Of a stretch of DNA of 21,813 nt, positions 1 to 20,533 are shown piece after piece. Both the position numbers and the translations under genes were made by a program. Source of the stretch: a virus. Lineage: Duplodnaviria; Heunggongvirae; Uroviricota; Caudoviricetes. The first letter of the stretch is position 1. Each line of letters opens with the position of its first letter. The notes under the pieces were generated by a model. It did no database searches. It was not told where the DNA came from and was given only the letters and a program-made list of their open reading frames with translations. The stretch lies in IMG/VR virus record IMGVR_UViG_2563366926_000003; one strand, written 5' to 3'.

Positions 1-1284
1 TTACTTCTTCGCCTCTGCAACCACTTTGCTACCCACGCCGCGGTTATTGTATTCCCACATGCGGTTGTAGTTAGTGTCATTCAGATTGCGCTGTACTTCG
101 TCGTTATCATCAACGTTGCCAGTATTACCCGCAAACGGACGATTGGAAATCACCGCATCGGCCCACGGTTTCGCCGTGTTAAAACCTTCGTTGATGGCGC
201 TATCACGGATCACTACCTGACCGTTGGTATTGGCATCAACATCCAGCGAGCGGCCCAGTTGCGCCACGCCATCCCCGGAAGCATTGAAACGGCTGTTTAC
301 GGCGAGGAAACCGTAGTAAATGTTGGACAGCGTAGCCGGTGCAAACACATACGCTTCTTGCTGGGTACGGGAGTTCACCACGCGGAATTCGGTGTTATCG
401 AACACCACTGCGCCGCGACCAGAAACGATATCCACATCCCCTTCAATGTAGCTGTTAGTCACCAGGGTACGCGGCTGACGGTTGCTTTCCAGACGGTTTT
501 GCACACCGCTGTTGGTGACAAAGAAGGTATTCTGGCGACCGAGAATATTGACGTTATTGATCTGCACTTTGTCGCCATCAGTACGCAGTGCCACCGCCGG
601 ATGGTTACCCGCATCTACGCTATCGCCCAGTGTGTTTTCGATGGTCAGGTTTTGCAGTTGCAGGCCATTGTTTTGTGACCAGAAGACCGCAGAACAGAGC
701 ACGCCAATGCTGTCGCTGCGTTTGCTCTGGCAGCTATCGTACATATACCACGCTGGTTTACCCGGCATATATTTGCCGCGTGGGTTGACGTCGTGACGCC
801 AGTCGGCTGGGCTCATGCCCCCATCAAGGGAAAGCCCAATTTTCACATCAATCGGTTTTTCACCTGTACCGTACAGAGTAATTCCACCCGGAGCGGCAGG
901 GACATACACCGTTCCCTGATACTCACCAGGCATCACGGCAATATACTGGCGCTTGTTGGTACGCTTGATAATTGCCGCATCTACCGCCGCCTGAATCGTG
1001 GTATGCGTTACACCTTGAGTACCCGCCGGGCCGACAACAAAGTCAGGTTGTGCAGGCAGGGTAATCGGGGAAGGATTCCACGCTGCAGCACCTGGTGTCA
1101 GGGATGCAAAATAGTGTTGAGCATCGAAATTCTGCGCTTCTTTTGCCGACAGAATCGGGCGAGAAGAGGTACCAGGCGCGGTTTGATCAGAAGGACGTTG
1201 ATCGGGCGGTGTTGAGCTACAGGCGGTCAGCGTCACGCCAAAAGCCAATGCCAGCGCCAGACGGGAAACTGAAAATGTGTTCAC
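1..1284 (-). CDS. ybhC: Host lipoprotein YbhC (pectinesterase-like / acyl-CoA thioesterase family), flanking lambda attB
   Basis: Full 427-aa ORF with a lipoprotein signal peptide (lipobox LTAC); recognised as E. coli YbhC, the gene next to the lambda attachment site. Stop codon at window position 1-3. Confidence 0.85.
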   Translation of the reverse strand: MNTFSVSRLALALAFGVTLTACSSTPPDQRPSDQTAPGTSSRPILSAKEAQNFDAQHYFASLTPGAAAWNPSPITLPAQPDFVVGPAGTQGVTHTTIQAAVDAAIIKRTNKRQYIAVMPGEYQGTVYVPAAPGGITLYGTGEKPIDVKIGLSLDGGMSPADWRHDVNPRGKYMPGKPAWYMYDSCQSKRSDSIGVLCSAVFWSQNNGLQLQNLTIENTLGDSVDAGNHPAVALRTDGDKVQINNVNILGRQNTFFVTNSGVQNRLESNRQPRTLVTNSYIEGDVDIVSGRGAVVFDNTEFRVVNSRTQQEAYVFAPATLSNIYYGFLAVNSRFNASGDGVAQLGRSLDVDANTNGQVVIRDSAINEGFNTAKPWADAVISNRPFAGNTGNVDDNDEVQRNLNDTNYNRMWEYNNRGVGSKVVAEAKK

Positions 1285-1418: not shown

Positions 1419-2489
1419 TTATTTGATTTCAATTTTGTCCCACTCCCTGCCTCTGTCATCACGATACTGTGATGCCATGGTGTCCGACTTATGCCCGAGA
1501 AGATGTTGAGCAAACTTATCGCTTATCTGCTTCTCATAGAGTCTTGCAGACAAACTGCGCAACTCGTGAAAGGTAGGCGGATCCCCTTCGAAGGAAAGAC
1601 CTGATGCTTTTCGTGCGCGCATAAAATACCTTGATACTGTGCCGGATGAAAGCGGTTCACGACGAGTAGATGCAATTATGGTTTCTCCGTCAAGAATCTC
1701 TTTGCATTTATCAAGTGTTTCCTTCATTGATATTCCGAGAGCATCAACATGCAATGCTGTTGGGATGGCAATTTTTACGCCTGTTTTGCTTTGCTCGACA
1801 TAAAGATATCCATCTACGATATCAGACCACTTCATTTCGCATAAATCACCAACTCGTTGCCCGGTAACAACAGCCAGTTCCATTGCAAGTCTGAGCCAAC
1901 ATGGTGATGATTCTGCTGCTTGATAAATTTTCAGGTATTCGTCAGCCGTAAGTCTTGATCTCCTTACCTCTGATTTTGCTGCGCGAGTGGCAGCGACAGG
2001 GTTTGTTGTTATATGGCCTTCAGCTATTGCCTCTCGGAATGCATCGCTCAGTGTTGATCTGATTAACTTGGCTGACGCCGCCTTGCCCTCGTCTATGTAT
2101 CCATTGAGCATTGCCGCAATTTCTTTTGTGGTGATGTCTTCAAGTGGAGCATCAGGCAGCCCCCTCCTTATTGCTTTAATTTTGCTCATGTAATTTATGA
2201 GTGTCTTCTGCTTGATTCCTCTGCTGGCCAGGATTTTTTCGTAGCGATCAAGCCATGAATGTAACGTAACGGAATTATCACTGTTGATTCTCGCTGTCAG
2301 AGGCTTGTGTTTGTGTCCTGAAAATAACTCAATGTTGGCCTGTATGGCTTCAGTGATTGCGATTCGCCTGTCTCTGCCTAATCCAAACTCTTTACCCGTC
2401 CTTGGGTCCCTGTAGCAGTAATATCCATTGTTTCTTATATAAAGGTTAGGGGGTAAATCCCGGCGCTCATGACTTCGCCTTCTTCCCAT
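1419..2489 (-). CDS. int: Lambda integrase (tyrosine recombinase)
   Basis: 356-aa ORF (MGRRRSHERRDLPPNLYIRNNGYYCYRDPRTGKEFGLGRDRR...); full length and sequence recognised as lambda Int; adjacent to attL and overlapping xis. Confidence 0.97.
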   Translation of the reverse strand: MGRRRSHERRDLPPNLYIRNNGYYCYRDPRTGKEFGLGRDRRIAITEAIQANIELFSGHKHKPLTARINSDNSVTLHSWLDRYEKILASRGIKQKTLINYMSKIKAIRRGLPDAPLEDITTKEIAAMLNGYIDEGKAASAKLIRSTLSDAFREAIAEGHITTNPVAATRAAKSEVRRSRLTADEYLKIYQAAESSPCWLRLAMELAVVTGQRVGDLCEMKWSDIVDGYLYVEQSKTGVKIAIPTALHVDALGISMKETLDKCKEILDGETIIASTRREPLSSGTVSRYFMRARKASGLSFEGDPPTFHELRSLSARLYEKQISDKFAQHLLGHKSDTMASQYRDDRGREWDKIEIK

Positions 2490-2685
2490 TTCTGATCCTC
2501 TTCAAAAGGCTACCTGTTACTGGTCGATTTAAGTCAACCTTTACCGCTGATTCGTGGAACAGATATTCTCTTCCATCCTTAACCGGAGGAGGGAATATCC
2601 TGCATTCGCGCACCCATCGACGAACTGTTTCAAGGCTTCTTGGGCGTCGCTGGCGTGCGTTCCACTCCTGAAGTGTCAAGTACAT
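2467..2685 (-). CDS. xis: Lambda excisionase
   Basis: 72-aa ORF (MYLTLQEWNARQRRPRSLETVRRWVRECRIFPPPVKDGREYLFHE...) recognised as lambda Xis; 3' end overlaps the int start as in lambda. Confidence 0.95.
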   Translation of the reverse strand: MYLTLQEWNARQRRPRSLETVRRWVRECRIFPPPVKDGREYLFHESAVKVDLNRPVTGSLLKRIRNGKKAKS

Positions 2686-2930
2686 CGCAAAGTCTCCGCA
2701 ATTACACGCAAGAAAAAACCGCCATCAGGCGGCTTGGTGTTCTTTCAGTTCTTCAATTCGAATATTGGTTATGTCTGCATGTGCTATCTGCGCCCATATC
2801 ATCCAGTGGTCGTAGCAGTCGTTGATGTTCTCCGCTTCGATAACTCTGTTGAATGGCTCTCCATTCCATTCTCCTGTGACTCGGAAGTGCATTTATCATC
2901 GCCATAAAACAAAACCCGCCGTAGCGAGTT

Positions 2931-2960
2931 CAGATAAAAGAAATCCTCGTCAGTGCGAGG
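2931..2960 (-). terminator. Putative intrinsic terminator (leftward) upstream of xis
   Basis: Hairpin cctcg-tcagtg-cgagg (2945-2960); on the minus strand it is followed by a T-rich tract (plus-strand ataaaagaaat at 2934-2944). Confidence 0.35.
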
Positions 2961-3134
2961 ATGCTGTTCATTGCTGCTATACACTTTTTTGCTCTCAACG
3001 TAAGCGGTAGCCCATTCTGTTGGGTTGGTGCAGTTGCTTTTAGGAAATGCTATTTACCCCTTAAATGTCGGCTGAAAGAGCTAAAATCCATGCAAAAAAT
3101 TTACGCAATTTTGTGTATTATTGTGCAGTAAGTA

Positions 3135-3737
3135 ATGAGCTATTTTCTGCGCAAAAAATGGATGGTAAATTTGTCCGGGTCAGGAAAAATTTTATGGGCG
3201 CTAAACATGAAAAAAGATTCGTATCCTTATTTGATTTGCATGACAGTTTCAGGGCTGATCTTTATTTTCCTTTTCTTCTGGTGGCGGGCAGATATCTACA
3301 GGGTCACGTTTCTTAATCAGAGTATATCCCACTATTACATTCTGTTTAGCATGGGAATAGCTTTTCTGTTATCTCTGTTTTGGGTTAAGAAGGGGATAGT
3401 AAAACAAAGAGGCTGGAAGAGTCTGTCAGCATACCTTAAGGTTTATGCAGGGATGTGCATATTTGCAGGATTTTTTCTGATTATACCCCTTACGACACTA
3501 ACTTATTTTTTGCCTGGAGAGACATCGTCTTATGTTGCACCGTATCGGTATACTTCCGGTAGTTCAAAAAGTTGTTCTGGAGCTGAGGTGGATGACCCCG
3601 ATCTACATGAGAATATTCGCATTTGCTATCCGTATGGCAATTATGAGTACGATAATATTATCTATGTTGAAAAGAAAATTAATATATTAGGTGCGGTAGT
3701 GACATATGCACAGACCGCGCGTGATGATACTGAATGA
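3135..3737 (+). CDS. Hypothetical integral membrane protein (about 3 predicted TM helices, Cys/Tyr-rich C-terminal tail); AT-rich cargo gene opposite to the pL operon
   Basis: 200-aa ORF with hydrophobic segments (LICMTVSGLIFIFLFFWW; ILFSMGIAFLLSLFWV; VYAGMCIFAGFFLIIPLTTLTYFL); AT-rich sequence with AT-rich codon choice; followed by a strong hairpin terminator. Start uncertain (alternative ATGs at 3161 and 3206; no strong SD for any). Confidence 0.55.
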   Translation: MSYFLRKKWMVNLSGSGKILWALNMKKDSYPYLICMTVSGLIFIFLFFWWRADIYRVTFLNQSISHYYILFSMGIAFLLSLFWVKKGIVKQRGWKSLSAYLKVYAGMCIFAGFFLIIPLTTLTYFLPGETSSYVAPYRYTSGSSKSCSGAEVDDPDLHENIRICYPYGNYEYDNIIYVEKKINILGAVVTYAQTARDDTE

Positions 3738-3771
3738 TATAGTATATAGCGGGCAAGTTTTAGTTAATTTA

Positions 3772-3809
3772 TCGAGGTAATATAATTTACCTCGACTCGT
3801 TTGTTCTGG
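3772..3809 (+). terminator. Intrinsic terminator of the membrane-protein cargo gene
   Basis: Perfect 9-bp inverted repeat tcgaggtaa / ttacctcga (3772-3780 and 3787-3795) with 6-nt loop tataat, followed by the T-rich stretch ctcgtttgttctgg. Confidence 0.55.
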
Positions 3810-3947
3810 TATTAATATTTCGCTTTACGACCGATTTTTATCTGATGATATCATGCGGTTTTCATATACTGACTTACTGTCTTTTCTCCGTTAGCGATTT
3901 TCTCCTGCTCAGCGATGATTTTATCTTTGGCTTCTAGTTAATTTCGC

Positions 3948-4169
3948 TCACTTCGAACCTCTCTGTTTACTGATAAGCTCCAGATCCTCCTGGCAACTTG
4001 CACAAGTCCGACAACCCTGAACGACCAGGCGTCTTCGTTCATCTATCGGATCGCCACACTCACAACAATGAGTGGCAGATATAGCCTGGTGGTTCAGGCG
4101 GCGCATTTTTATTGCTGTGTTGCGCTGTAATTCTTCAATTTCTGATGCTGAATCAATGATGTCTGCCAT
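3948..4169 (-). CDS. TraR/DksA-family C4 zinc-finger protein (lambdoid early-region small protein)
   Basis: 73-aa ORF with a CxxC...CxxC motif (CCECGDPIDERRRLVVQGCRTCASC), typical of the TraR/DksA family that binds the RNA polymerase secondary channel. Confidence 0.8.
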   Translation of the reverse strand: MADIIDSASEIEELQRNTAIKMRRLNHQAISATHCCECGDPIDERRRLVVQGCRTCASCQEDLELISKQRGSK

Positions 4170-4912: not shown

Positions 4913-5583
4913 TGCTCCCCAAATACAAAACCAATTTCAGCCAGTGCCTCGTCCATTTTTTCGATGAACTCCGGCACCATCTCGTCAAAACTCGCTATAT
5001 ACTTTTCATTCCGCTCAATCACGACATAATGCAGGCCTTCACGCTTCATGCGCGGGTCATAGTTGGCAAAGTACCAGGCATCTTTTCGCGTCACCCACAT
5101 GCTGTACTGCACCTGGGCCATGTAAGCCGACTTTATGGCCTCGAAACCACCGAGCCGGAATTTCATGAAATCCCGGGAGGTAAACGGGCATTTCAGCTCA
5201 AGGCCATTGCCGTCACTGCATAAACCATCGGGAGAGCAGGCGGTGCGCATACTTTCGTCGCGATAGATGATCGGGGATTCAATAACATTTACGCCGGAAG
5301 TGAACTCAAACAGAGTTCTGGCGTCGTTCTCGTACTGTTTTCCCCATGCCAGCGCCTTAGCATTAACTTCCGGAGCCACACCGGTGCAAACCTCAGCCAG
5401 CAGGGTGTGGAAGTAGGACATTTTCATGTCAGGCCACTTCTTTCCTGAGCGGGGCTTGGCTATCACGTTGTGAACTTCTGAAGCGGTGATGACGCCGAGC
5501 CGTAATTTGTGCCATGCATCATCCCCCTGTTCGACAGCTCTCACGTCGATCCCGGTACGCTGCAGGATAATGTCCGGTGTCAT
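4903..5583 (-). CDS. exo: Lambda exonuclease (Red-alpha)
   Basis: 226-aa ORF ([43 protein letters not shown]...) recognised as lambda Exo; start overlaps the bet stop (ATGA). Confidence 0.97.
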
Positions 5584-6365
5584 GCTGCCACCTTCTGCTC
5601 AGTGGCTTTCTGTTTCAGGAATCCAAGAGCTTTCACTGCTTCGGCCTGTGTCAGTTCTGACGATGCGCGAATGTCGCGGCGAAATATCTGGGAACAGAGC
5701 GGCAATAAGTCGTCATTCCATGTTTTATCCAGGGCGATCAGCAGAGTGTTAATCTCCTGCATGGTTTCATCGTTAACCGGAGTGATGTCGCGTTCCGGCT
5801 GACGTTCTGCAGTGTATGCGGTATTTTCGACAATGCGCTCGGCTTCATCCTTGTCATAGATACCAGCAAATCCGAAGGCGAGACGGGCACACTGAATCAT
5901 GGCTTTATGCCGTAACATCCGTTTGGGATGCGACTGCCACGGCCCCGTGATTTCTCTGCCTTCGCGGGTTTTGAATGGTTCGCGGCGGCATTCATCCATC
6001 CATTCGGTAACGCAGATCGGATGATTGCGGTCTTTGCGGTAAATCCGGCATGTGCAGGATTCGTTGTCCTGTTCAAAGTCCATGCCGTCAAACTGCTGGT
6101 TTTCGTTGATGATGCGGGACCAGCCATCAACGCCCACCACCGGAACGATGCCGTTCTGCTTATCAGGGAAGGCGTAAATTTCTTTCGTCCACGGATTAAG
6201 ACCGTACTGGTTGGCGACGATCAGCAATGCGATGAACTGCGCATCGCTGGCATCACCTTTAAATGCCGTCTGGCGAAGAGTGGTGATCAGTTCCTGTGGG
6301 TCGACAGAATCCATGCCGACACGTTCAGCCAGCTTCCCAGCCAGCGTTGCGAGTGCTGTACTCAT
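5580..6365 (-). CDS. bet: Lambda Beta single-strand annealing protein (Red-beta)
   Basis: 261-aa ORF ([66 protein letters not shown]...) recognised as lambda Bet. Confidence 0.97.
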
Positions 6366-8055: not shown

Positions 8056-8637
8056 ATGAACAACTCATGGTGGCAGGAACTAATGCATTTTTTCCTGCAA
8101 GGAATGACACTTAAACAGTTGATTCATATGCTAATCATCCTGATCATATTGATTATTGTTATGCCGGTAAGCGTAAAAGAATGGATAAACCTGCATAATC
8201 CAGAAATCCTTCCTCATTACTGGATGTATTACATCCTGTTGTTTTGCGTTAGCTATGTGCTTAACGGCGTTGTTAATTCCGCTTATCACGCTGTGACTGA
8301 AAGAATTGAGGTATTCGTTGCTCAGAAGCGCAAATCTAAAGAAGAAAAATATGTGCAAGATTTGTTTGATTCGTTAACTCTTGGAGAAAGAGCGTATTTG
8401 GCATTCGCTGTAGCCGCTAATAACCAGCTACAAACGGAAAAGGGAGCTCATGAATCAATTTCATTGCTCAAAAAAGGACTCCTCGTTCGAAGGCCTCCTG
8501 CTGTTGGATATCCTGATACCGACCGTTTTGTTATTCCTGAAAGCTATAGACATGAGTGCTACATTCGGTTTGCCGGGAAGGCAGACAGCCTTATGGATGA
8601 ACTTATCGCTCAGGATAAGCATGGCAAAAACAAGTAA
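8056..8637 (+). CDS. sieB: Superinfection exclusion protein B
   Basis: 193-aa ORF with N-terminal hydrophobic segments (LIHMLIILIILIIVMPV; YWMYYILLFCVSYVLNGVV); sits between ral and N, convergent with the pL operon, as sieB does in lambda and P22. Confidence 0.8.
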   Translation: MNNSWWQELMHFFLQGMTLKQLIHMLIILIILIIVMPVSVKEWINLHNPEILPHYWMYYILLFCVSYVLNGVVNSAYHAVTERIEVFVAQKRKSKEEKYVQDLFDSLTLGERAYLAFAVAANNQLQTEKGAHESISLLKKGLLVRRPPAVGYPDTDRFVIPESYRHECYIRFAGKADSLMDELIAQDKHGKNK

Positions 8638-13722: not shown

Positions 13723-16700
13723 ATGACCACTGTGAATAAAAAGTTAAAAAAAACTGCATCTGGCGCGATTACATGGTCAGTAATTGTTACCCAGATATTA
13801 TCTCCAGTTTCTCTTTCTTTGATTCCGGCAAACAGTTTTGCATCGTCTGATAATAAAGATGTTACGCAAATTTATGCTAGCGATGAGCGTGCAAATAAAG
13901 TGGCCTCATTTGCAGTAAGTGCAGGTCAGAGTCTGGCGAATAATAATGCAAGTAGTTTTGCTGTAAATACTTTATCAACTCAGGCGACAAAAGAGGTCGT
14001 CGATTGGTTGCAACAATATGGCAATGCGCGCATCAAGCTTAATGTCGATAATTCTTTTTCCTTGAAGGATTCATCATTCGACTTTTTATATCCATGGCTG
14101 GATACTCAGGATTATGTGCTATTCAGTCAAACATCACTACATCGTACTGATGACCGTAATCAGACCAATATTGGTTTGGGGATTCGTCATTTCACTCCTG
14201 ATAATGCAATGTTGGGTGCGAATGTTTTCTACGATTATGATTTAAGTCGCAGCCACTCTCGCGCAGGTTTTGGGGTTGAGTACTGGAGAGATTATTTCAG
14301 GCTTGGTGTAAATACCTATTTTGGTTTATCTGACTGGAAGGACAGTCGGGATATTGATGATTATCTGGAAAGACCCGCAAATGGCTGGGATTTTTCTGCT
14401 GAAGGATGGCTACCTGCTTATCCGCAATTAGGGGCATCTATTCAGTTTGAAAAATATTATGGTAAAAATGTCGGATTATTTGGAAGCGATAATCTGCAGG
14501 AAAACCCTTACGCAGTTACTGGGGGAATTTCTTATACACCAGTTCCTCTGATTAAGTTTTCTGCACAGCATAAGCAAGGACAGAGCAACGTTCACGATAC
14601 AACCTTTGGTGTTGAGTTTAATTACCGCCCAGGCGTTTCCCTTGCTGAACAGCTTAGCAGTGACAATGTTGCAGTTATGCGAGAAGTCCAGAACCGGCGT
14701 TATGATTTTGTTGAACGAAATAACAACATTGTTCTGGAGTACAAGAAGAAGCATGCACTGAAAATCAGCTTACCAGAGTCTGTTCAGGGGGATGGCGAAT
14801 CAATCATCCCTGTAACACTGACAATCAACAATGCCAGTGGTGGTATCAAGTCTGTACAGTGGAATGATAGTGTATTCACTGCGGCTGGCGGTAAGATCAG
14901 TGGAAATGGCACATCATGGCAGGTCACTTTACCGGCTTATAAAAGCGAAGGTGTAAATTCGTGGAATGTTGGAGCCACGGTCCAGGATAATAGAGGCAAC
15001 GTTTCCAACTATGCGGTGATGAATATTAGCGTTATCAATAGTGGTGTCTCGACAGCGGATTCTTCTTTTATGTTGGATGGAGATTCATCTCCGACGATCT
15101 CTGCTGATGGTCAATCCACTCATCCAATAGTATTAAGCCTGAAAGACAGTAACGGTAAGGCATTAACCGGACTGGCTGATGACATTGAAATGTCAGTGGA
15201 ATTTACTGCGGATAGCAATAGTGCTCGACAGCGTGAAACGGTAACTGCCCCGTCATTAGGCGCGGTAGAGGAAATCTCTGCTGGTGTATATCGCTCTGTT
15301 CTGACTGCTGGTTCGCAGGCTGGCACAGTACGTGTAACAGCAAAAGTTCAGGGAAAAACCTTTACTTTGAATATTAAGCAGGCAGCCGTTATTGATAGTG
15401 ATGTCTCGACAGCGGATTCTTCTTTTACGTTGGATGGTGATTCGTCTCCGACGATCTCTGCTGATGGTCAATCCACTCATCCAATAGTATTAAGCCTGAA
15501 AGACAGTAACGGTAAGGCATTAACCGGACTGGCTGATGACATTGAAATGTCAGTGGAATTTACTGCGGATAGCAATAGTGCTCGACAGCGTGAAACGGTA
15601 ACTGCCCCGTCATTAGGCGCGGTAGAGGAAATCTCTGCTGGTGTATATCGCTCTGTTCTGACTGCTGGTTCGCAGGCTGGTACGGTACGTGTAACTGCAA
15701 AAGTAATGGATAAAACATTTACTCTCAGTATTAAGCAAACAGCAGCAACAGAACCTGATTCTGAGGTCAGTGCTGTTTTAACCGCTGCACCAGCAGAACA
15801 GGTAGTTGGTTACAATATCAATCTACAACTGGCAGTGAAGGATTCACAAGGAAATGCAATCACTGGTGATAACACTCTGAGCTTTTATGCTCTTAACCAG
15901 GCAGAAGGAGTCGAGTTTGGGGCTGTAACGGAAAAAGACGGTGTCTATAGCGCGACAGTAACTTCAAAACGAGCTGGTAAGATTCGGATCGGTGTTAAAT
16001 CGGGTAGTCACAATTTCTCAGGTATTGAGAAAGAAATCTCCTTTATTGAAGATCGAACACAGTTCGCATTCTCTCGTATTGAAGCCAGTAAAAATAATGC
16101 ATTGGCTGACGGCAAACAACAGAATACGGTGACTTTAAGCCTTGCAGATCGTTTCGGCAATGTTGTGCCCGGTTATGCTGTTACGCTGTCCTTACCTGCG
16201 GGGGTAACTCAAGTTGGTGGTGAACATGCTGTGTCAACTGACGAAAACGGTAATGCTGTTTTTGCGTTAATAAGCTCCACTCCGGGTTCTTACGTGATTA
16301 AAGCTCATGCTGGTTCTCAGATGTCTACTGAGTTAACAGTAACCTTTGCATCAAATATGATCGGAGCTTCACTGTCACTGACGCCTGGAAACAGTAGCTT
16401 AATTTCCAATATTCCTGCTAATGGTAAGGATGCTGCGGTATTGAATGTGCAACTGACAAATACGAATGCGTCGGTCAATGGACAGAAGATTCAGCTCATC
16501 ACCTCATCTGAAAGATTGTCTGTACCGACAAATATCGTGACTGATTCAACAGGGCATGTTTCCGTACCACTTACAACGGTGAGAGCTGGTGAGTATACGG
16601 TGGCTGCACGAGTGACTGACGGTTCCCATAGTGTGGAGTCTGGCAGCGTTAAGTTAACTTTTGTACCAGATGCTGCTTCCGCAGAACTTACTATGAGTAC

Positions 16701-17631
16701 ATCAAAACAGCAGATTGTGGCCGATGGTAGTGAAAGTGCAACAGTGGACATTCAGTTGGTTGATGCCAATAACAATGCGTTTACAGGCGATGTGGATTTA
16801 ACGGTTACACCATCGACGGGAGCATCATTGACCAGTAGTAAACTGCAGTTGGATGCTCATGGACAGGCAACAACGCAGTTCACAGCATCGAAATCAGGCC
16901 AGTACACAATTCAGGCTGAGTATGTTCTAGATGGGAAACGTATAACCGCAAGCAAAAATATTGATGCCGTGACGGATGTGAAGGAGGCTGTGTTGGAGAT
17001 CACATCATCTGCATCTTCGGCTGTAGTGAGCGATACCAACAATCTGATATTTACGTTACTGTTGAAAAGTACGTCAGGCGAAGTATTAAGTGGTCGAGTA
17101 TTGAATATCAAGGCATCTGGGCCGTCCAAATATGGTGCGTTGGTGGTTGATAAAACCACTGTAACGACTGATGAGTATGGTCTGGCTACGGTAAGCGTAC
17201 ATGGTCGAACGGCTGGTTCGTATAAATTAACGGCGACCTTAGATGAACTTGGCAGTGATGTTAGTGAGGTGAAGTCATTCTCTCTGTATGCTGATGAGGC
17301 AAATGGAGTATTGACACTGCATAAAGATGGAGGCTATGACACAGATGATGGTACTCCAGTGGGGGTTTATGCCCGATTTGTTGACCATTTCGGCAATCCG
17401 TTATCTGGTACGGTTGAGTTTTCTGCTGGTAGTGAAGATAGTCCAAACTCTCAACGGGTTAAAATGGAGCCTGCTACAGTAACGTTACACTGGACAGGTA
17501 ATGCAGCCTCGGAGTTCAGCACCTATGAAAGCGGTTATCACTGGATTAAGGCCAAAATAACGAACAGCAAAAATACATATGAGAAAACAATAAGGACTTA
17601 TGTTGTAAAGCTCCCTGAAAAGGATAGTTAA
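13723..17631 (+). CDS. Inverse autotransporter adhesin of the intimin/invasin family (signal peptide, outer-membrane beta-barrel, tandem bacterial Ig-like domains)
   Basis: 1302-aa ORF; N-terminal signal-like segment; residues ~100-340 resemble the intimin/invasin beta-barrel translocator (GIRHFTPDN...GFGVEYWRDYFRLGVNTYFG...FGVEFNYRPGV); the C-terminal ~950 aa is a series of repeated ~100-120-aa Ig-like modules including two near-identical copies; preceded by ~240 bp of very AT-rich DNA and followed by a strong terminator. Confidence 0.85.
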   Translation: MTTVNKKLKKTASGAITWSVIVTQILSPVSLSLIPANSFASSDNKDVTQIYASDERANKVASFAVSAGQSLANNNASSFAVNTLSTQATKEVVDWLQQYGNARIKLNVDNSFSLKDSSFDFLYPWLDTQDYVLFSQTSLHRTDDRNQTNIGLGIRHFTPDNAMLGANVFYDYDLSRSHSRAGFGVEYWRDYFRLGVNTYFGLSDWKDSRDIDDYLERPANGWDFSAEGWLPAYPQLGASIQFEKYYGKNVGLFGSDNLQENPYAVTGGISYTPVPLIKFSAQHKQGQSNVHDTTFGVEFNYRPGVSLAEQLSSDNVAVMREVQNRRYDFVERNNNIVLEYKKKHALKISLPESVQGDGESIIPVTLTINNASGGIKSVQWNDSVFTAAGGKISGNGTSWQVTLPAYKSEGVNSWNVGATVQDNRGNVSNYAVMNISVINSGVSTADSSFMLDGDSSPTISADGQSTHPIVLSLKDSNGKALTGLADDIEMSVEFTADSNSARQRETVTAPSLGAVEEISAGVYRSVLTAGSQAGTVRVTAKVQGKTFTLNIKQAAVIDSDVSTADSSFTLDGDSSPTISADGQSTHPIVLSLKDSNGKALTGLADDIEMSVEFTADSNSARQRETVTAPSLGAVEEISAGVYRSVLTAGSQAGTVRVTAKVMDKTFTLSIKQTAATEPDSEVSAVLTAAPAEQVVGYNINLQLAVKDSQGNAITGDNTLSFYALNQAEGVEFGAVTEKDGVYSATVTSKRAGKIRIGVKSGSHNFSGIEKEISFIEDRTQFAFSRIEASKNNALADGKQQNTVTLSLADRFGNVVPGYAVTLSLPAGVTQVGGEHAVSTDENGNAVFALISSTPGSYVIKAHAGSQMSTELTVTFASNMIGASLSLTPGNSSLISNIPANGKDAAVLNVQLTNTNASVNGQKIQLITSSERLSVPTNIVTDSTGHVSVPLTTVRAGEYTVAARVTDGSHSVESGSVKLTFVPDAASAELTMSTSKQQIVADGSESATVDIQLVDANNNAFTGDVDLTVTPSTGASLTSSKLQLDAHGQATTQFTASKSGQYTIQAEYVLDGKRITASKNIDAVTDVKEAVLEITSSASSAVVSDTNNLIFTLLLKSTSGEVLSGRVLNIKASGPSKYGALVVDKTTVTTDEYGLATVSVHGRTAGSYKLTATLDELGSDVSEVKSFSLYADEANGVLTLHKDGGYDTDDGTPVGVYARFVDHFGNPLSGTVEFSAGSEDSPNSQRVKMEPATVTLHWTGNAASEFSTYESGYHWIKAKITNSKNTYEKTIRTYVVKLPEKDS
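15030..15743 (+). repeat. Near-identical 357-bp (119-codon) in-frame tandem duplication inside the adhesin gene
   Basis: The unit starting gtctcgacagcggattcttctttt occurs at 15046 and again at 15403 (period 357 bp); the central ~280 bp differ at only a handful of positions; encodes VSTADSSF.LDGDSSPTISADGQSTHPIVLSLKDSNGKALTGLADDIEMSVEFTADSNSARQRETVTAPSLGAVEEISAGVYRSVLTAGSQAGTVRVTAKV twice. Confidence 0.92.
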
Positions 17632-17670: not shown

Positions 17671-18153
17671 ATTGAGACGGACTGTTTCTTAAATTCACTT
17701 ACGTTAGATATGAACTGGTTATTTTTTATAACAATAAAAGACTTTTGATTTTTGAATATCAGTAAGTAATAATGATTTACGTCGACAGACTGAACATCTG
17801 TTGGTGACTTCTGCGCTAAACGGGGACGTTTATGCGCACATACAATCTAAACTCTCTTCTCTCTTCACAGATGCAGAAATGCACCTGCGATTCTTTGCAT
17901 CCAACGTTTGACCTCTGCGGAGGTGAAGCGTGAACCTCCCACAAGATGGCATCAAATTACATCGCGGTAACTTCACCGCTATCGGTCGGCAGATCCAGCC
18001 TTATCTGGAGGACGGCAAATGCTTTCGCATGGTGCTTAAACCGTGGCGCGAGAGACGCAGTCTAGACTGGCCCCCTGAATCTCCAGACAACCAGTATCAC
18101 TTAAATAAGTGATAGTCTTAATACTAGTTTTTAGACTAGTCATTGGAGAACAG

Positions 18154-18519
18154 ATGATTGATGTCTTAGGGCCGGAGAAACGCAGACGGCGTACCACACA
18201 GGAAAAGATCGCAATTGTTCAGCAGAGCTTTGAACCGGGGATGACGGTCTCCCTCGTTGCCCGGCAACATGGTGTAGCAGCCAGCCAGTTATTTCTCTGG
18301 CGTAAGCAATACCAGGAAGGAAGTCTTACTGCTGTCGCCGCCGGAGAACAGGTTGTTCCTGCCTCTGAACTTGCTGCCGCCATGAAGCAGATTAAAGAAC
18401 TCCAGCGCCTGCTCGGCAAGAAAACGATGGAAAATGAACTCCTCAAAGAAGCCGTTGAATATGGACGGGCAAAAAAGTGGATAGCGCACGCGCCCTTATT
18501 GCCCGGGGATGGGGAGTAA
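18154..18519 (+). CDS. insC: IS2 OrfA (InsC) transposase regulatory/DNA-binding subunit
   Basis: 121-aa frame [56 protein letters not shown]... with RBS ggagaa; recognised as IS2 InsC. Confidence 0.93.
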
Positions 18520-19382
18520 GCTTAGTCAGCCGTTGTCTCCGGGTGTCGCGTGCGCAGTTGCACGTCATTCTCAGACGAACCGATGACTGGATGGATGGCC
18601 GCCGCAGTCGTCACACTGATGATACGGATGTGCTTCTCCGTATACACCATGTTATCGGAGAGCTGCCCACGTATGGTTATCGTCGGGTATGGGCGCTGCT
18701 TCGCAGACAGGCAGAACTTGATGGTATGCCTGCGATCAATGCCAAACGTGTTTACCGGATCATGCGCCAGAATGCGCTGTTGCTTGAGCGAAAACCTGCT
18801 GTACCGCCATCGAAACGGGCACATACAGGCAGAGTGGCCGTGAAAGAAAGCAATCAGCGATGGTGCTCTGACGGGTTCGAGTTCTGCTGTGATAACGGAG
18901 AGAGACTGCGTGTCACGTTCGCGCTGGACTGCTGTGATCGTGAGGCACTGCACTGGGCGGTCACTACCGGCGGCTTCAACAGTGAAACAGTACAGGACGT
19001 CATGCTGGGAGCGGTGGAACGCCGCTTCGGCAACGATCTTCCGTCGTCTCCACTGGAGTGGCTGACGGATAATGGTTCATGCTACCGGGCTAATGAAACA
19101 CGCCAGTTCGCCCGGATGTTGGGACTTGAACCGAAGAACACGGCGGTGCGGAGTCCGGAGAGTAACGGAATAGCAGAGAGCTTCGTGAAAACGATAAAGC
19201 GTGACTACATCAGTATCATGCCCAAACCAGACGGGTTAACGGCAGCAAAGAACCTTGCAGAGGCGTTCGAGCATTATAACGAATGGCATCCGCATAGTGC
19301 GCTGGGTTATCGCTCGCCACGGGAATATCTGCGGCAGCGGGCTTGTAATGGGTTAAGTGATAACAGATGTCTGGAAATATAG
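18477..19382 (+). CDS. insD: IS2 OrfB (InsD) transposase catalytic domain (DDE); expressed as an OrfAB fusion by -1 frameshifting
   Basis: 301-aa ORF recognised as IS2 InsD; slippery A6G motif (aaaaaag, 18470-18476) at the orfA/orfB overlap. Confidence 0.93.
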
Positions 19383-19891: not shown

Positions 19892-20174
19892 TTTGAGAAA
19901 AGCAGCGCGTGGTCGGGAATGCCAGGTAAGAATCCCTGGCGTATGTAATGGCAATTCTGAAACGTCTGTACTGGCACATATCCGGCTGGCTGGATTGTGC
20001 GGTACCGGTATCAAACCGCCAGACCTGATTGCCACCATTGCATGTTCTGCCTGTCACGACGAGATCGACCGTCGCACGCATTTTGTTGACGCTGGATATG
20101 CAAAAGAATGCGCGCTGGAAGGTATGGCGAGAACGCAGGTTATCTGGCTGAAAGAGGGGGTAATTAAGGCGTGA
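19884..20174 (+). CDS. ybcO: YbcO-like (DUF1364) putative zinc-binding nuclease of the nin region
   Basis: 96-aa frame [64 protein letters not shown]... with a strong RBS (aaggagg); Cys/His-rich; recognised as the DLP12 YbcO family. Confidence 0.8.
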
Positions 20175-20533
20175 ATACCTACAATATCACATTACCCTGG
20201 CCGCCGAGCAATAATCGCTATTACCGCCATAATCGCGGGCGCACGCACATCAGCGCAGAGGGGCAGGCATACCGCGAAAACGTCGCCCGAATCATTAAAA
20301 ACGCAATGCTGGATATCGGCCTGGCTATGCCTGTGAAAATCCGCATTGAGTGTCACATGCCGGATCGCCGTCGCCGTGACCTGGATAATCTACAAAAGGC
20401 CGCTTTTGACGCACTCACCAAAGCAGGTTTCTGGTTGGATGATGCTCAGGTCGTTGATTACCGCGTTGTGAAGATGCCGGTTGTCAAAGGTGGAAAGCTG
20501 GAACTGACCATCACTGAACAGGGAGATGAATGA
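20171..20533 (+). CDS. rusA: RusA Holliday junction resolvase
   Basis: 120-aa ORF (GTG start overlapping the ybcO stop) [103 protein letters not shown]...; recognised as DLP12-type RusA. Confidence 0.92.

Follow-up and report, generated by a model that had tools for sequence, protein, structure and literature searches.

A moron shared by lambdoid and P2-like prophages encodes a predicted inner-membrane protein and is a candidate for superinfection exclusion or defence

Introduction

Is a single rightward gene in the left arm of a lambdoid prophage a functional unit of its own, and if so, what might it do for the phage or its host? This question is raised by positions 2,931 to 3,809 of a 21,813-nt stretch of DNA from a virus of the Caudoviricetes (IMG/VR record IMGVR_UViG_2563366926_000003), which was analyzed as a whole and is referred to here as the window. 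An initial annotation, made from the sequence alone, had described at this locus an autonomous membrane-protein cargo gene that lies on the opposite strand, is expressible in a lysogen and replaces the lambda ea region between xis and the exo-proximal genes. We find that the locus is a moron, i.e. a self-contained transcription unit carried as accessory cargo of temperate phages. The cassette is transcribed from a silent prophage, its gene is maintained by selection, and diverged copies occur in P2-like prophages. For its product, we tentatively propose a role in superinfection exclusion or defence at the inner membrane.

The 879-bp stretch is 98.5-99.7% identical to phages 434, mEp332 and 2B8, and a chromosomal locus of at least 95% identity is present in 935 of 5426 complete Escherichia coli genomes (~17%), including prophage CP-933K of the O157:H7 strain EDL933. 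The gene is also found in Shigella sonnei. It is thus already annotated yet uncharacterised: phage records list it merely as "hypothetical" or "putative membrane protein", the genome announcement of 434 is silent on it, and our literature search found nothing for the gene accessions or for exclusion by 434 lysogens.

Results

Transcription from a silent prophage

In a Cappable-seq study of EDL933, a plus-strand transcription start site (TSS) was mapped for the cassette gene at position 892672 in seven of eight conditions, with three replicates each (PMC10469882, supplementary files 6 and 8). Window positions 3067-3179 have the identical sequence in EDL933, and with the offset fixed by the end of the coding sequence (CDS) the site falls on G3128. 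Because the TSS was detected in seven of eight conditions in a strain with identical upstream DNA, we conclude that the cassette is transcribed from the silent prophage. This transcription is constitutive across media and growth phases in the uninduced EDL933 prophage, and it runs rightward, opposing the surrounding pL operon. Of the neighbouring genes in EDL933, xis has a TSS in two conditions only and bet in four (PMC10469882). The features of the transcription unit are as follows.

3070-3827, plus strand: mobile module (moron) of 758 bp with promoter, 5' untranslated region (5'UTR), CDS and hairpin, common to the lambdoid ea region and the P2-like gpQ-gpA hotspot
3100-3129, plus strand: three 10-bp-phased direct repeats, TTTACGCAAT, TTTGTGTATT and ATTGTGCAGT, overlapping the core promoter
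3116-3121, plus strand: -10 hexamer TATTAT, read from the sequence, ending 7 nt upstream of the TSS
3128 (G3128), plus strand: TSS, transferred from EDL933 892672
3128-3206, plus strand: 5'UTR of 79 nt, with its sequence conserved in the phage-borne copies (lambdoid, E. coli P2-like and Salmonella P2-like)
3142-3159, within the 5'UTR: palindrome ATTTTCTGCGCAAAAAAT
3163-3171, within the 5'UTR: conserved element TGGTAAATT
3207-3737, plus strand: most likely CDS (176 aa) from the family-wide start; the ATGs at 3135 and 3162 are in frame and not conserved
3772-3808, plus strand: intrinsic-terminator-like hairpin with 9-bp stem and 6-nt loop, plus the tail CTCGTTTGTTCTG

Upstream of the TATTAT hexamer, a -35 element could not be recognised; its place is taken by an A-tract. 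The core promoter is overlapped by the phased repeats, which read ATTGTGCA three times in the P2-borne copies (three copies with spacings of 10 and 10 in prophage L005, at 5894-5926; at 4993-5025 in prophage L018). TTGTGC stands at -106, -96 and -86 from the ATG, i.e. at the same distances, in three contexts, lambdoid and P2-borne. Among the chromosomal homologues, those of Klebsiella, Enterobacter, Pantoea and Cedecea showed no evident repeats upstream, and the Serratia copy has a single TTGTGC.

The record of phage 434 annotates a CII-activated promoter at this site, an assignment that we rejected. Promoters of this kind have TTGC-N6-TTGC repeats on either side of their -35 region. The TTGT-N6-TTGT match at 3111-3124 overlaps the -10 and not the -35 region, and the annotated "CII site" is one pair of the 10-bp-phased repeats. 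The degenerate CII pattern is not enriched (8 occurrences compared to 5.3 expected), and no Phage_CII gene was present in the inspected parts of the P2-like loci that carry the same repeats. To our knowledge, P2-like phages are without CII. We likewise rejected TGGTAAATT as a promoter: it resembles an extended -10 element, yet the EDL933 Cappable-seq table gives 3128 alone and no TSS there. The Salmonella and Cedecea copies likewise have this TGnTAAnTT element, at about -44 relative to the ATG; the Klebsiella copy does not. A conserved RNA fold was not detected in the 5'UTR (RNAalifold -1.8 kcal/mol, no covariation).

At its downstream end, the cassette has a hairpin (3772-3795) that the initial annotation had called a perfect 9-bp stem terminator. 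The stem indeed consists of nine perfect pairs (-12.9 kcal/mol, z-score -3.3), and none of 200 shuffled sequences folded as well; the tail CTCGTTTGTT is just moderately T-rich. On these sequence features, the hairpin is terminator-like and is predicted to be the cassette's own terminator. In the E. coli P2 copy, an A-T pair of the stem is replaced by G-C through changes on either side, another pair is lost, and the hairpin is weaker at -8 kcal/mol.

Further start sites were reported in and near the cassette in EDL933. Two antisense TSSs lie inside it on the minus strand at 892858 and 893192 (window 3314 and 3648), in two to three of eight conditions, and a plus-strand TSS antisense within xis maps to 892121 (window 2577), in five of eight conditions (PMC10469882). 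The site at 3314 is 7 nt downstream of a promoter-like site from our scan (TAAACA-16-TATACT, 3348-3321).

Reading frame, start codon and selection

The 200-aa open reading frame (ORF) at 3135-3737 on the plus strand is present as initially annotated. Its proposed first codon did not hold, and the alternative that had been listed at the third ATG, window 3207, is favoured. Met25 of the ORF (window 3207) is the start in all homologues compared, at 23-78% identity, from Salmonella, Enterobacter, Klebsiella, Cedecea, Serratia and Pantoea. Moreover, a Salmonella copy has an in-frame TAA seven codons 5' of the family Met, and ATG 3135 is replaced by ATC or TGT in P2-borne copies. We therefore consider ATG 3207 the most likely coding start, giving a predicted product of 176 aa. 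Starts at 3135 or 3162 were rejected as non-conserved and in view of the Salmonella stop; at 3135, the 5'UTR would be just 7 nt. The EDL933 gene is annotated in the TSS study at 892751-893281, which corresponds to window 3207-3737 and the 176-aa form (PMC10469882).

The initial annotation had made its proposal depend on a detectable transcript and an intact, conserved frame; the TSS at 3128 supplies the former, and the selection analysis the latter. In comparisons with diverged copies (22-29% amino-acid divergence), the ratio of nonsynonymous to synonymous substitution rates (dN/dS) was 0.08-0.15, with 0.125 against the E. coli P2-borne copy, ~0.10 against Salmonella copies, and the lowest values in the C-terminal domain (0.05-0.08). 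The gene is under strong purifying selection, and on this basis a spurious ORF is excluded. The gene is also intact in CP-933K, a decayed prophage with a frameshifted int and a truncated bet joined straight to the nin region, and the cassette is still transcribed there despite this heavy decay.

A strikingly AT-biased codon usage had been noted for the gene relative to int, xis and exo. The CDS has a GC content of 0.39, compared to 0.45-0.53 for its neighbours, and a GC content at third codon positions (GC3) of 0.39. GC and GC3 are 0.52 and 0.62 for exo and 0.53 and 0.59 for bet, and GC3 is 0.48 for xis and 0.41 for int, the last being near the value of the cassette gene. The strong bias therefore holds against exo and bet and only weakly against int.

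Exchange with the P2 hotspot

In BLASTN comparisons with the E. coli P2-like prophages L017 and L018, window 3070-3827 aligned with 76.6% identity over 761 columns. The shared DNA extends from 137 nt upstream of the ATG to just beyond the hairpin and defines the module listed above. Identity in the upstream non-coding part (78% for E. coli, 57-62% for Salmonella) exceeds that at third codon positions (62% and 48-49%, respectively), and therefore the regulatory region is constrained and travels with the gene. The module was found in only 5 of 50,697 phage records; its lambdoid carriers, with promoter, CDS and hairpin, are the window, 434, mEp332, 2B8 and CP-933K.

The copy in the window itself resides in a lambdoid prophage; placement between gpQ and gpA applies to homologues at 56-78% identity. 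In the E. coli P2-like prophages, a copy with 78% protein identity lies between the portal gene gpQ and the replication endonuclease gene gpA, i.e. at the old/tin position. We found five diverged variants at this P2 locus in four genera: E. coli (78%), Salmonella (71% and 59%), Enterobacter hormaechei (58%) and Klebsiella michiganensis (56%). One P2-borne copy is frameshifted, and the K. michiganensis copy adjoins an NB-ARC/STAND NTPase gene. The P2 old/tin locus has been shown to be a reservoir, or hotspot, of anti-phage systems by Rousset et al. (PMC9122126), whose Table S5 of P2 loci includes the E. coli protein WP_000711113 as an untested "hypothetical". According to a 2026 survey, 19% of P2 elements carry solely unknown genes at hotspot loci, and many such genes are predicted, or in P4 shown, to be antiviral (PMC13586616).

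The cassette of the E. coli P2-like prophages borders on a truncated ead/Ea22-like pseudogene (L018 5736-6106 and L017 6736-7107, both minus strand) within a locus with ParM/StbA and Plasmid_stab_B genes. Given this arrangement, the cassette may have been acquired by P2 in exchange for part of a lambdoid-type Ea22-like gene.

A predicted inner-membrane protein with a periplasmic domain

Three hydrophobic segments followed by a Cys/Tyr-rich hydrophilic tail had been claimed initially, and our analysis agrees: the segments exceed a Kyte-Doolittle value of 1.5 and coincide with AlphaFold2 helices, and the tail of 75 aa contains two Cys and nine Tyr. AlphaFold2, run with 24 sequences, modelled helices at residues 5-29, 38-61 and 70-101, followed by five strands (predicted local distance difference test (pLDDT) score 87, predicted template modelling score 0.73); the C-terminal domain modelled alone reached a pLDDT of 90. 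The parts of the predicted protein map to the plus strand as follows.

3219-3293: predicted transmembrane (TM) helix 1, residues 5-29 (AlphaFold2, hydropathy, loop charges), after an N-terminal MKK predicted to be cytoplasmic
3294-3317: predicted short periplasmic loop 1, residues 30-37, with near-invariant I30, R32, T34, F35 and L36 and a modelled short strand at 34-36
3318-3389: predicted TM helix 2, residues 38-61 (AlphaFold2, hydropathy, loop charges)
3414-3509: predicted TM helix 3, residues 70-101, preceded by a basic cytoplasmic loop with five K/R and no acidic residues
3510-3734: predicted C-terminal periplasmic small beta-barrel of five strands, residues 102-176

Cys123 and Cys140 are invariant throughout the family, in the motifs CSGA and ICYP, and both cysteines as well as the length are kept down to 23% identity. 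Conservation is concentrated in loop 1 and the C-terminal domain rather than in the helices. Based on the MKK N-terminus, the acid-free basic loop 2, the acidic C-terminal domain, the invariant cysteines and this pattern of conservation, we predict an inner-membrane protein with the N-terminus inside and the C-terminus outside, exposing a periplasmic barrel whose two cysteines are probably disulfide-bonded. The positive-inside rule agrees with this placement of the N-terminus. Holin, GtrA-like and lipoprotein readings were rejected, as they do not fit this predicted topology with its periplasmic domain, the position outside the lysis cassette, the constitutive expression and the absence of a lipobox.

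The initial annotation recognised no family. This stands for Pfam and NCBIfam, as well as for the sequences of the PDB, none of which gave a match, and a search of viral structures in BFVD returned nothing significant. It does not stand for PHROG 1416, a family of no assigned function, the profile of which matches residues 113-200 of the 200-aa ORF (E = 7.1e-51). The C-terminal 88 residues here match its 90-position profile, so that the PHROG spans just TM helix 3 and the barrel; the gene calls it comprises apparently lack their N-terminal part. The fold weakly resembles small membrane-anchored or periplasmic barrels (DUF1093/YxeA-like, OB/cold-shock-like). The family is small, with 51 clusters at 50% identity among 1.84 billion proteins, all of similar length and none of them named.

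Discussion

Classical lambdoid morons are independent units within a phage operon that have their own promoter and terminator, show atypical composition, are expressed from the prophage and are patchily distributed among relatives. The module described here has its own prophage-active promoter and a terminator-like hairpin, is present patchily, moves as a unit and differs in composition from its surroundings. The initial view of an autonomous, opposite-strand membrane-protein cargo gene expressible in a lysogen is thereby borne out by the occurrence of the module in P2-like prophages, by the EDL933 start site and by purifying selection. HK97 gp15 and lambda bor and lom have these moron traits in common with the cassette, which differs from them in protein family and by lying in the ea region, between xis and exo. 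Of their products, gp15 is small with a single TM segment, and Bor and Lom reside in the outer membrane. The cassette represents a concrete case of one moron swapped between two unrelated temperate-phage lineages.

As to the function of the product, superinfection exclusion or defence at the inner membrane is the reading we favour, with a probability of roughly 0.4, because of the repeated occupancy of the P2 hotspot, the expression in the prophage state and an outline similar to that of SieA from P22. Genes next to some homologues speak for it too, namely the NB-ARC/STAND NTPase gene in K. michiganensis and a gene pair for AAA and Peptidase_S8 proteins beside a 31%-identical relative, as do the purifying selection on the gene and the predicted topology. 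The transcript would start from the TATTAT promoter at G3128 in the repressed prophage and run through the 79-nt leader and the CDS to the hairpin at 3772-3795. Its product would insert into the inner membrane by three TM helices with a cytoplasmic N-terminus and would display a compact module on the periplasmic face, formed by conserved loop 1 and the disulfide-bonded five-strand barrel. This module may interfere with an envelope step needed by superinfecting phages; most likely, it would disturb the assembly or operation of the DNA-entry conduit, or affect an inner-membrane factor for entry. Host and prophage alike would profit from a protein with such a role in superinfection exclusion or defence. 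In its full form, this proposal comprises a new inner-membrane exclusion or defence family, whose disulfide-bonded barrel jams genome entry and which is encoded by a ready-made cassette exchanged between the lambdoid ea region and the P2 hotspot; we advance this combination only as a speculative model.

In architecture, the closest parallel is SieA (superinfection exclusion A), which blocks DNA injection; it has 162-164 aa and three TM helices, and is made by the prophage and located in the inner membrane (PMC10883804). Both cases concern a single prophage gene with its own promoter and an uncertain start, and both products are predicted to span the inner membrane with three TM helices, at a length of ~165 aa for SieA (PMC10883804). 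However, the conserved SieA motif FxRYPxEAxxFNK is absent from the protein described here, and the conserved C-terminal region of SieA is predicted to be cytoplasmic, whereas here it is the predicted periplasmic, Cys-bearing barrel that is conserved; the genomic position differs as well. A second parallel is the cargo of the P2 old/tin hotspot, since P2-like prophages of E. coli, Salmonella, Enterobacter and Klebsiella carry homologues of the gene at precisely this place. Exclusion phenotypes are known for Old and Tin, which are cytoplasmic proteins, in contrast to the predicted membrane-embedded protein of the cassette.

Several findings weigh against a function in exclusion or defence. The gene has no homology to any characterised exclusion or defence protein: no PADLOC-DB v2 family matched at E <= 1, in line with the initial annotation, and alignment of the family profile to P22 SieA by hhalign gave a probability of 0.2% over 10 aligned columns. 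Database names across the family are just "hypothetical" or "transmembrane protein", and no phenotype is known for any member. Machine learning rates just 15-32% of the unknown P2 hotspot proteins as antiviral, and non-defence cargo is found there as well (PMC13586616). The prophage in the window also carries one exclusion or abortive-infection function already, namely a gene for SieB (superinfection exclusion B, PF14163, E = 2.5e-22) at 8056-8637 on the plus strand, in its usual position left of the immunity region. Finally, relatives with 35-56% identity are solitary among housekeeping genes on chromosomes or megaplasmids of Klebsiella sp., Enterobacter, Serratia, Pantoea and Cedecea. The Serratia copy lies between ptsG and mntR, and Pantoea contributes 25 plasmid records, all of these homologues being without phage context. 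The ancestral role therefore need not concern phages.

These stable chromosomal homologues are the basis of the main rival explanation, in which the product serves lysogenic conversion or the fitness of the envelope and has nothing to do with phages. Its barrel would attach to or protect a component of the envelope, providing for instance tolerance to antimicrobial peptides, bile, acid or metal stress, and the prophage would be maintained in the population through this advantage to its host, as for lambda Bor and Lom. Constitutive transcription across media and growth phases, the weak fold likeness to DUF1093 and OB-like barrels and the retention of the gene in the decayed CP-933K and in S. 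sonnei are in agreement with such a role. We regard it as possible, if on the doubtful side; repeated occupancy of the P2 hotspot and the SieA-like outline are what incline us towards exclusion or defence.

A further explanation is that the protein is an orphan immunity protein against a membrane- or periplasm-acting toxin of competitors, such as a pore-forming or lipid-II-targeting bacteriocin or an effector of type VI secretion or contact-dependent inhibition. The size of the protein and its three TM helices, together with an AT-rich gene on the opposite strand that has its own constitutive promoter, are reminiscent of immunity genes for pore-forming colicins, and a periplasmic domain with a disulfide is reminiscent of colicin M immunity; the gene also occurs singly and moves horizontally. 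Yet none of the ~10 contexts inspected has a toxin gene adjacent to it, and searches by sequence and by fold matched no immunity protein, which leaves this explanation unlikely.

TM proteins in known defence systems are usually suicide effectors (Rousset et al., PMC9122126), and the gene might by analogy encode an abortive-infection effector that is inert until infection and then depolarises the membrane, like RexB or other TM effectors. Its presence as a TM protein in defence hotspots would suit such a function. However, the gene stands alone, lacking a sensor partner in every context, its periplasmic module is more conserved than its helices, and its constitutive transcription suggests a non-toxic product; we judge an abortive-infection role highly improbable. 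A non-functional or decaying remnant whose transcript is noise, as might be suggested by the one frameshifted P2-borne copy and by truncated forms in databases, has next to no likelihood given a dN/dS of 0.08-0.15, length and cysteines kept to 23% identity, a confident fold and a TSS in seven of eight conditions.

Overall, a common cassette (~17% of complete E. coli genomes, S. sonnei, O157:H7 and the textbook phage 434) is transcribed from the prophage, and its product has a confidently predicted fold and lacks characterised relatives. Because it recurs at the P2 old/tin locus, the cassette is a well-defined candidate for a new exclusion mechanism at the periplasmic face of the inner membrane, which, if true, could explain an overlooked exclusion phenotype of 434 and CP-933K (O157:H7) lysogens. 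Should its role not be phage-related, the cassette would still represent an uncharacterised envelope protein family of Enterobacterales. Nothing about the proposal is mechanistically surprising; it offers a tractable candidate in a classical phage.

Distant homologues and surrounding genes

On an unassigned Logan contig (L028, 7001-8040), two family members of 173 and 174 aa, paralogues arranged in tandem with ~31% identity to the window protein, are located near an AAA and Peptidase_S8 pair and a DNA methylase gene, a neighbourhood that resembles a defence island.

The window contains a lambdoid prophage inserted beside ybhC, the left arm of which is followed by the cassette. Comparison with the annotations of 434 and EDL933 confirmed the position of the cassette gene between xis/ORF55 and the DksA-like gene, orf63, orf60a and exo, in place of the ea region as initially described.

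1-1284, minus strand: ybhC
1419-2489, minus strand: int
2467-2685, minus strand: xis
2725-2892, minus strand: ORF55/PHROG 676
2912-2931, minus strand: leftward terminator-like hairpin directly upstream of ORF55 in the direction of leftward transcription, with 8 pairs followed by TGTTTTATGG (terminator scan)
2943-2962, either strand: hairpin scoring as a terminator on both strands (terminator scan), matching t-L4 of phage 434, which is annotated at the homologous position (M60848)
3948-4169, minus strand: DksA/TraR-like gene, right of the cassette

The hairpin at 2943-2962 insulates the cassette on its left side. Rightward of the DksA-like gene follow homologues of orf63 and orf60a, then exo, bet and gam, and further right the window contains SieB, a cI-like repressor gene, CII, the O/P genes and other cargo. 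A plus-strand ORF of 56 aa, ORF56 (2961-3131), bears the label "putative membrane protein" or "hypothetical" in the records of 434 and mEp332. We consider it unlikely to be a gene, as it is situated upstream of the TSS with most of its length outside the module, has no family match and is without annotation in RefSeq EDL933. An ea22-like 3'-end remnant considered at 3830-3947 on the minus strand was unsupported, as tblastn places the peptide in the same phages only.

Directly after the O/P replication genes, a plus-strand gene (13723-17631) encodes an inverse autotransporter of 1302 aa that is intimin/invasin-like (IAT_beta, five Big_1/Invasin_D3 repeats) and looks like a large adhesin cargo gene within the prophage. 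It is followed by an IS2/IS3-family insertion (18109-19382). Another opposite-strand cargo gene may be the lipocalin ORF (Blc-like, PF08212; 21289-21813, minus strand) with which the window ends on the right, downstream of RusA (20171-20533).

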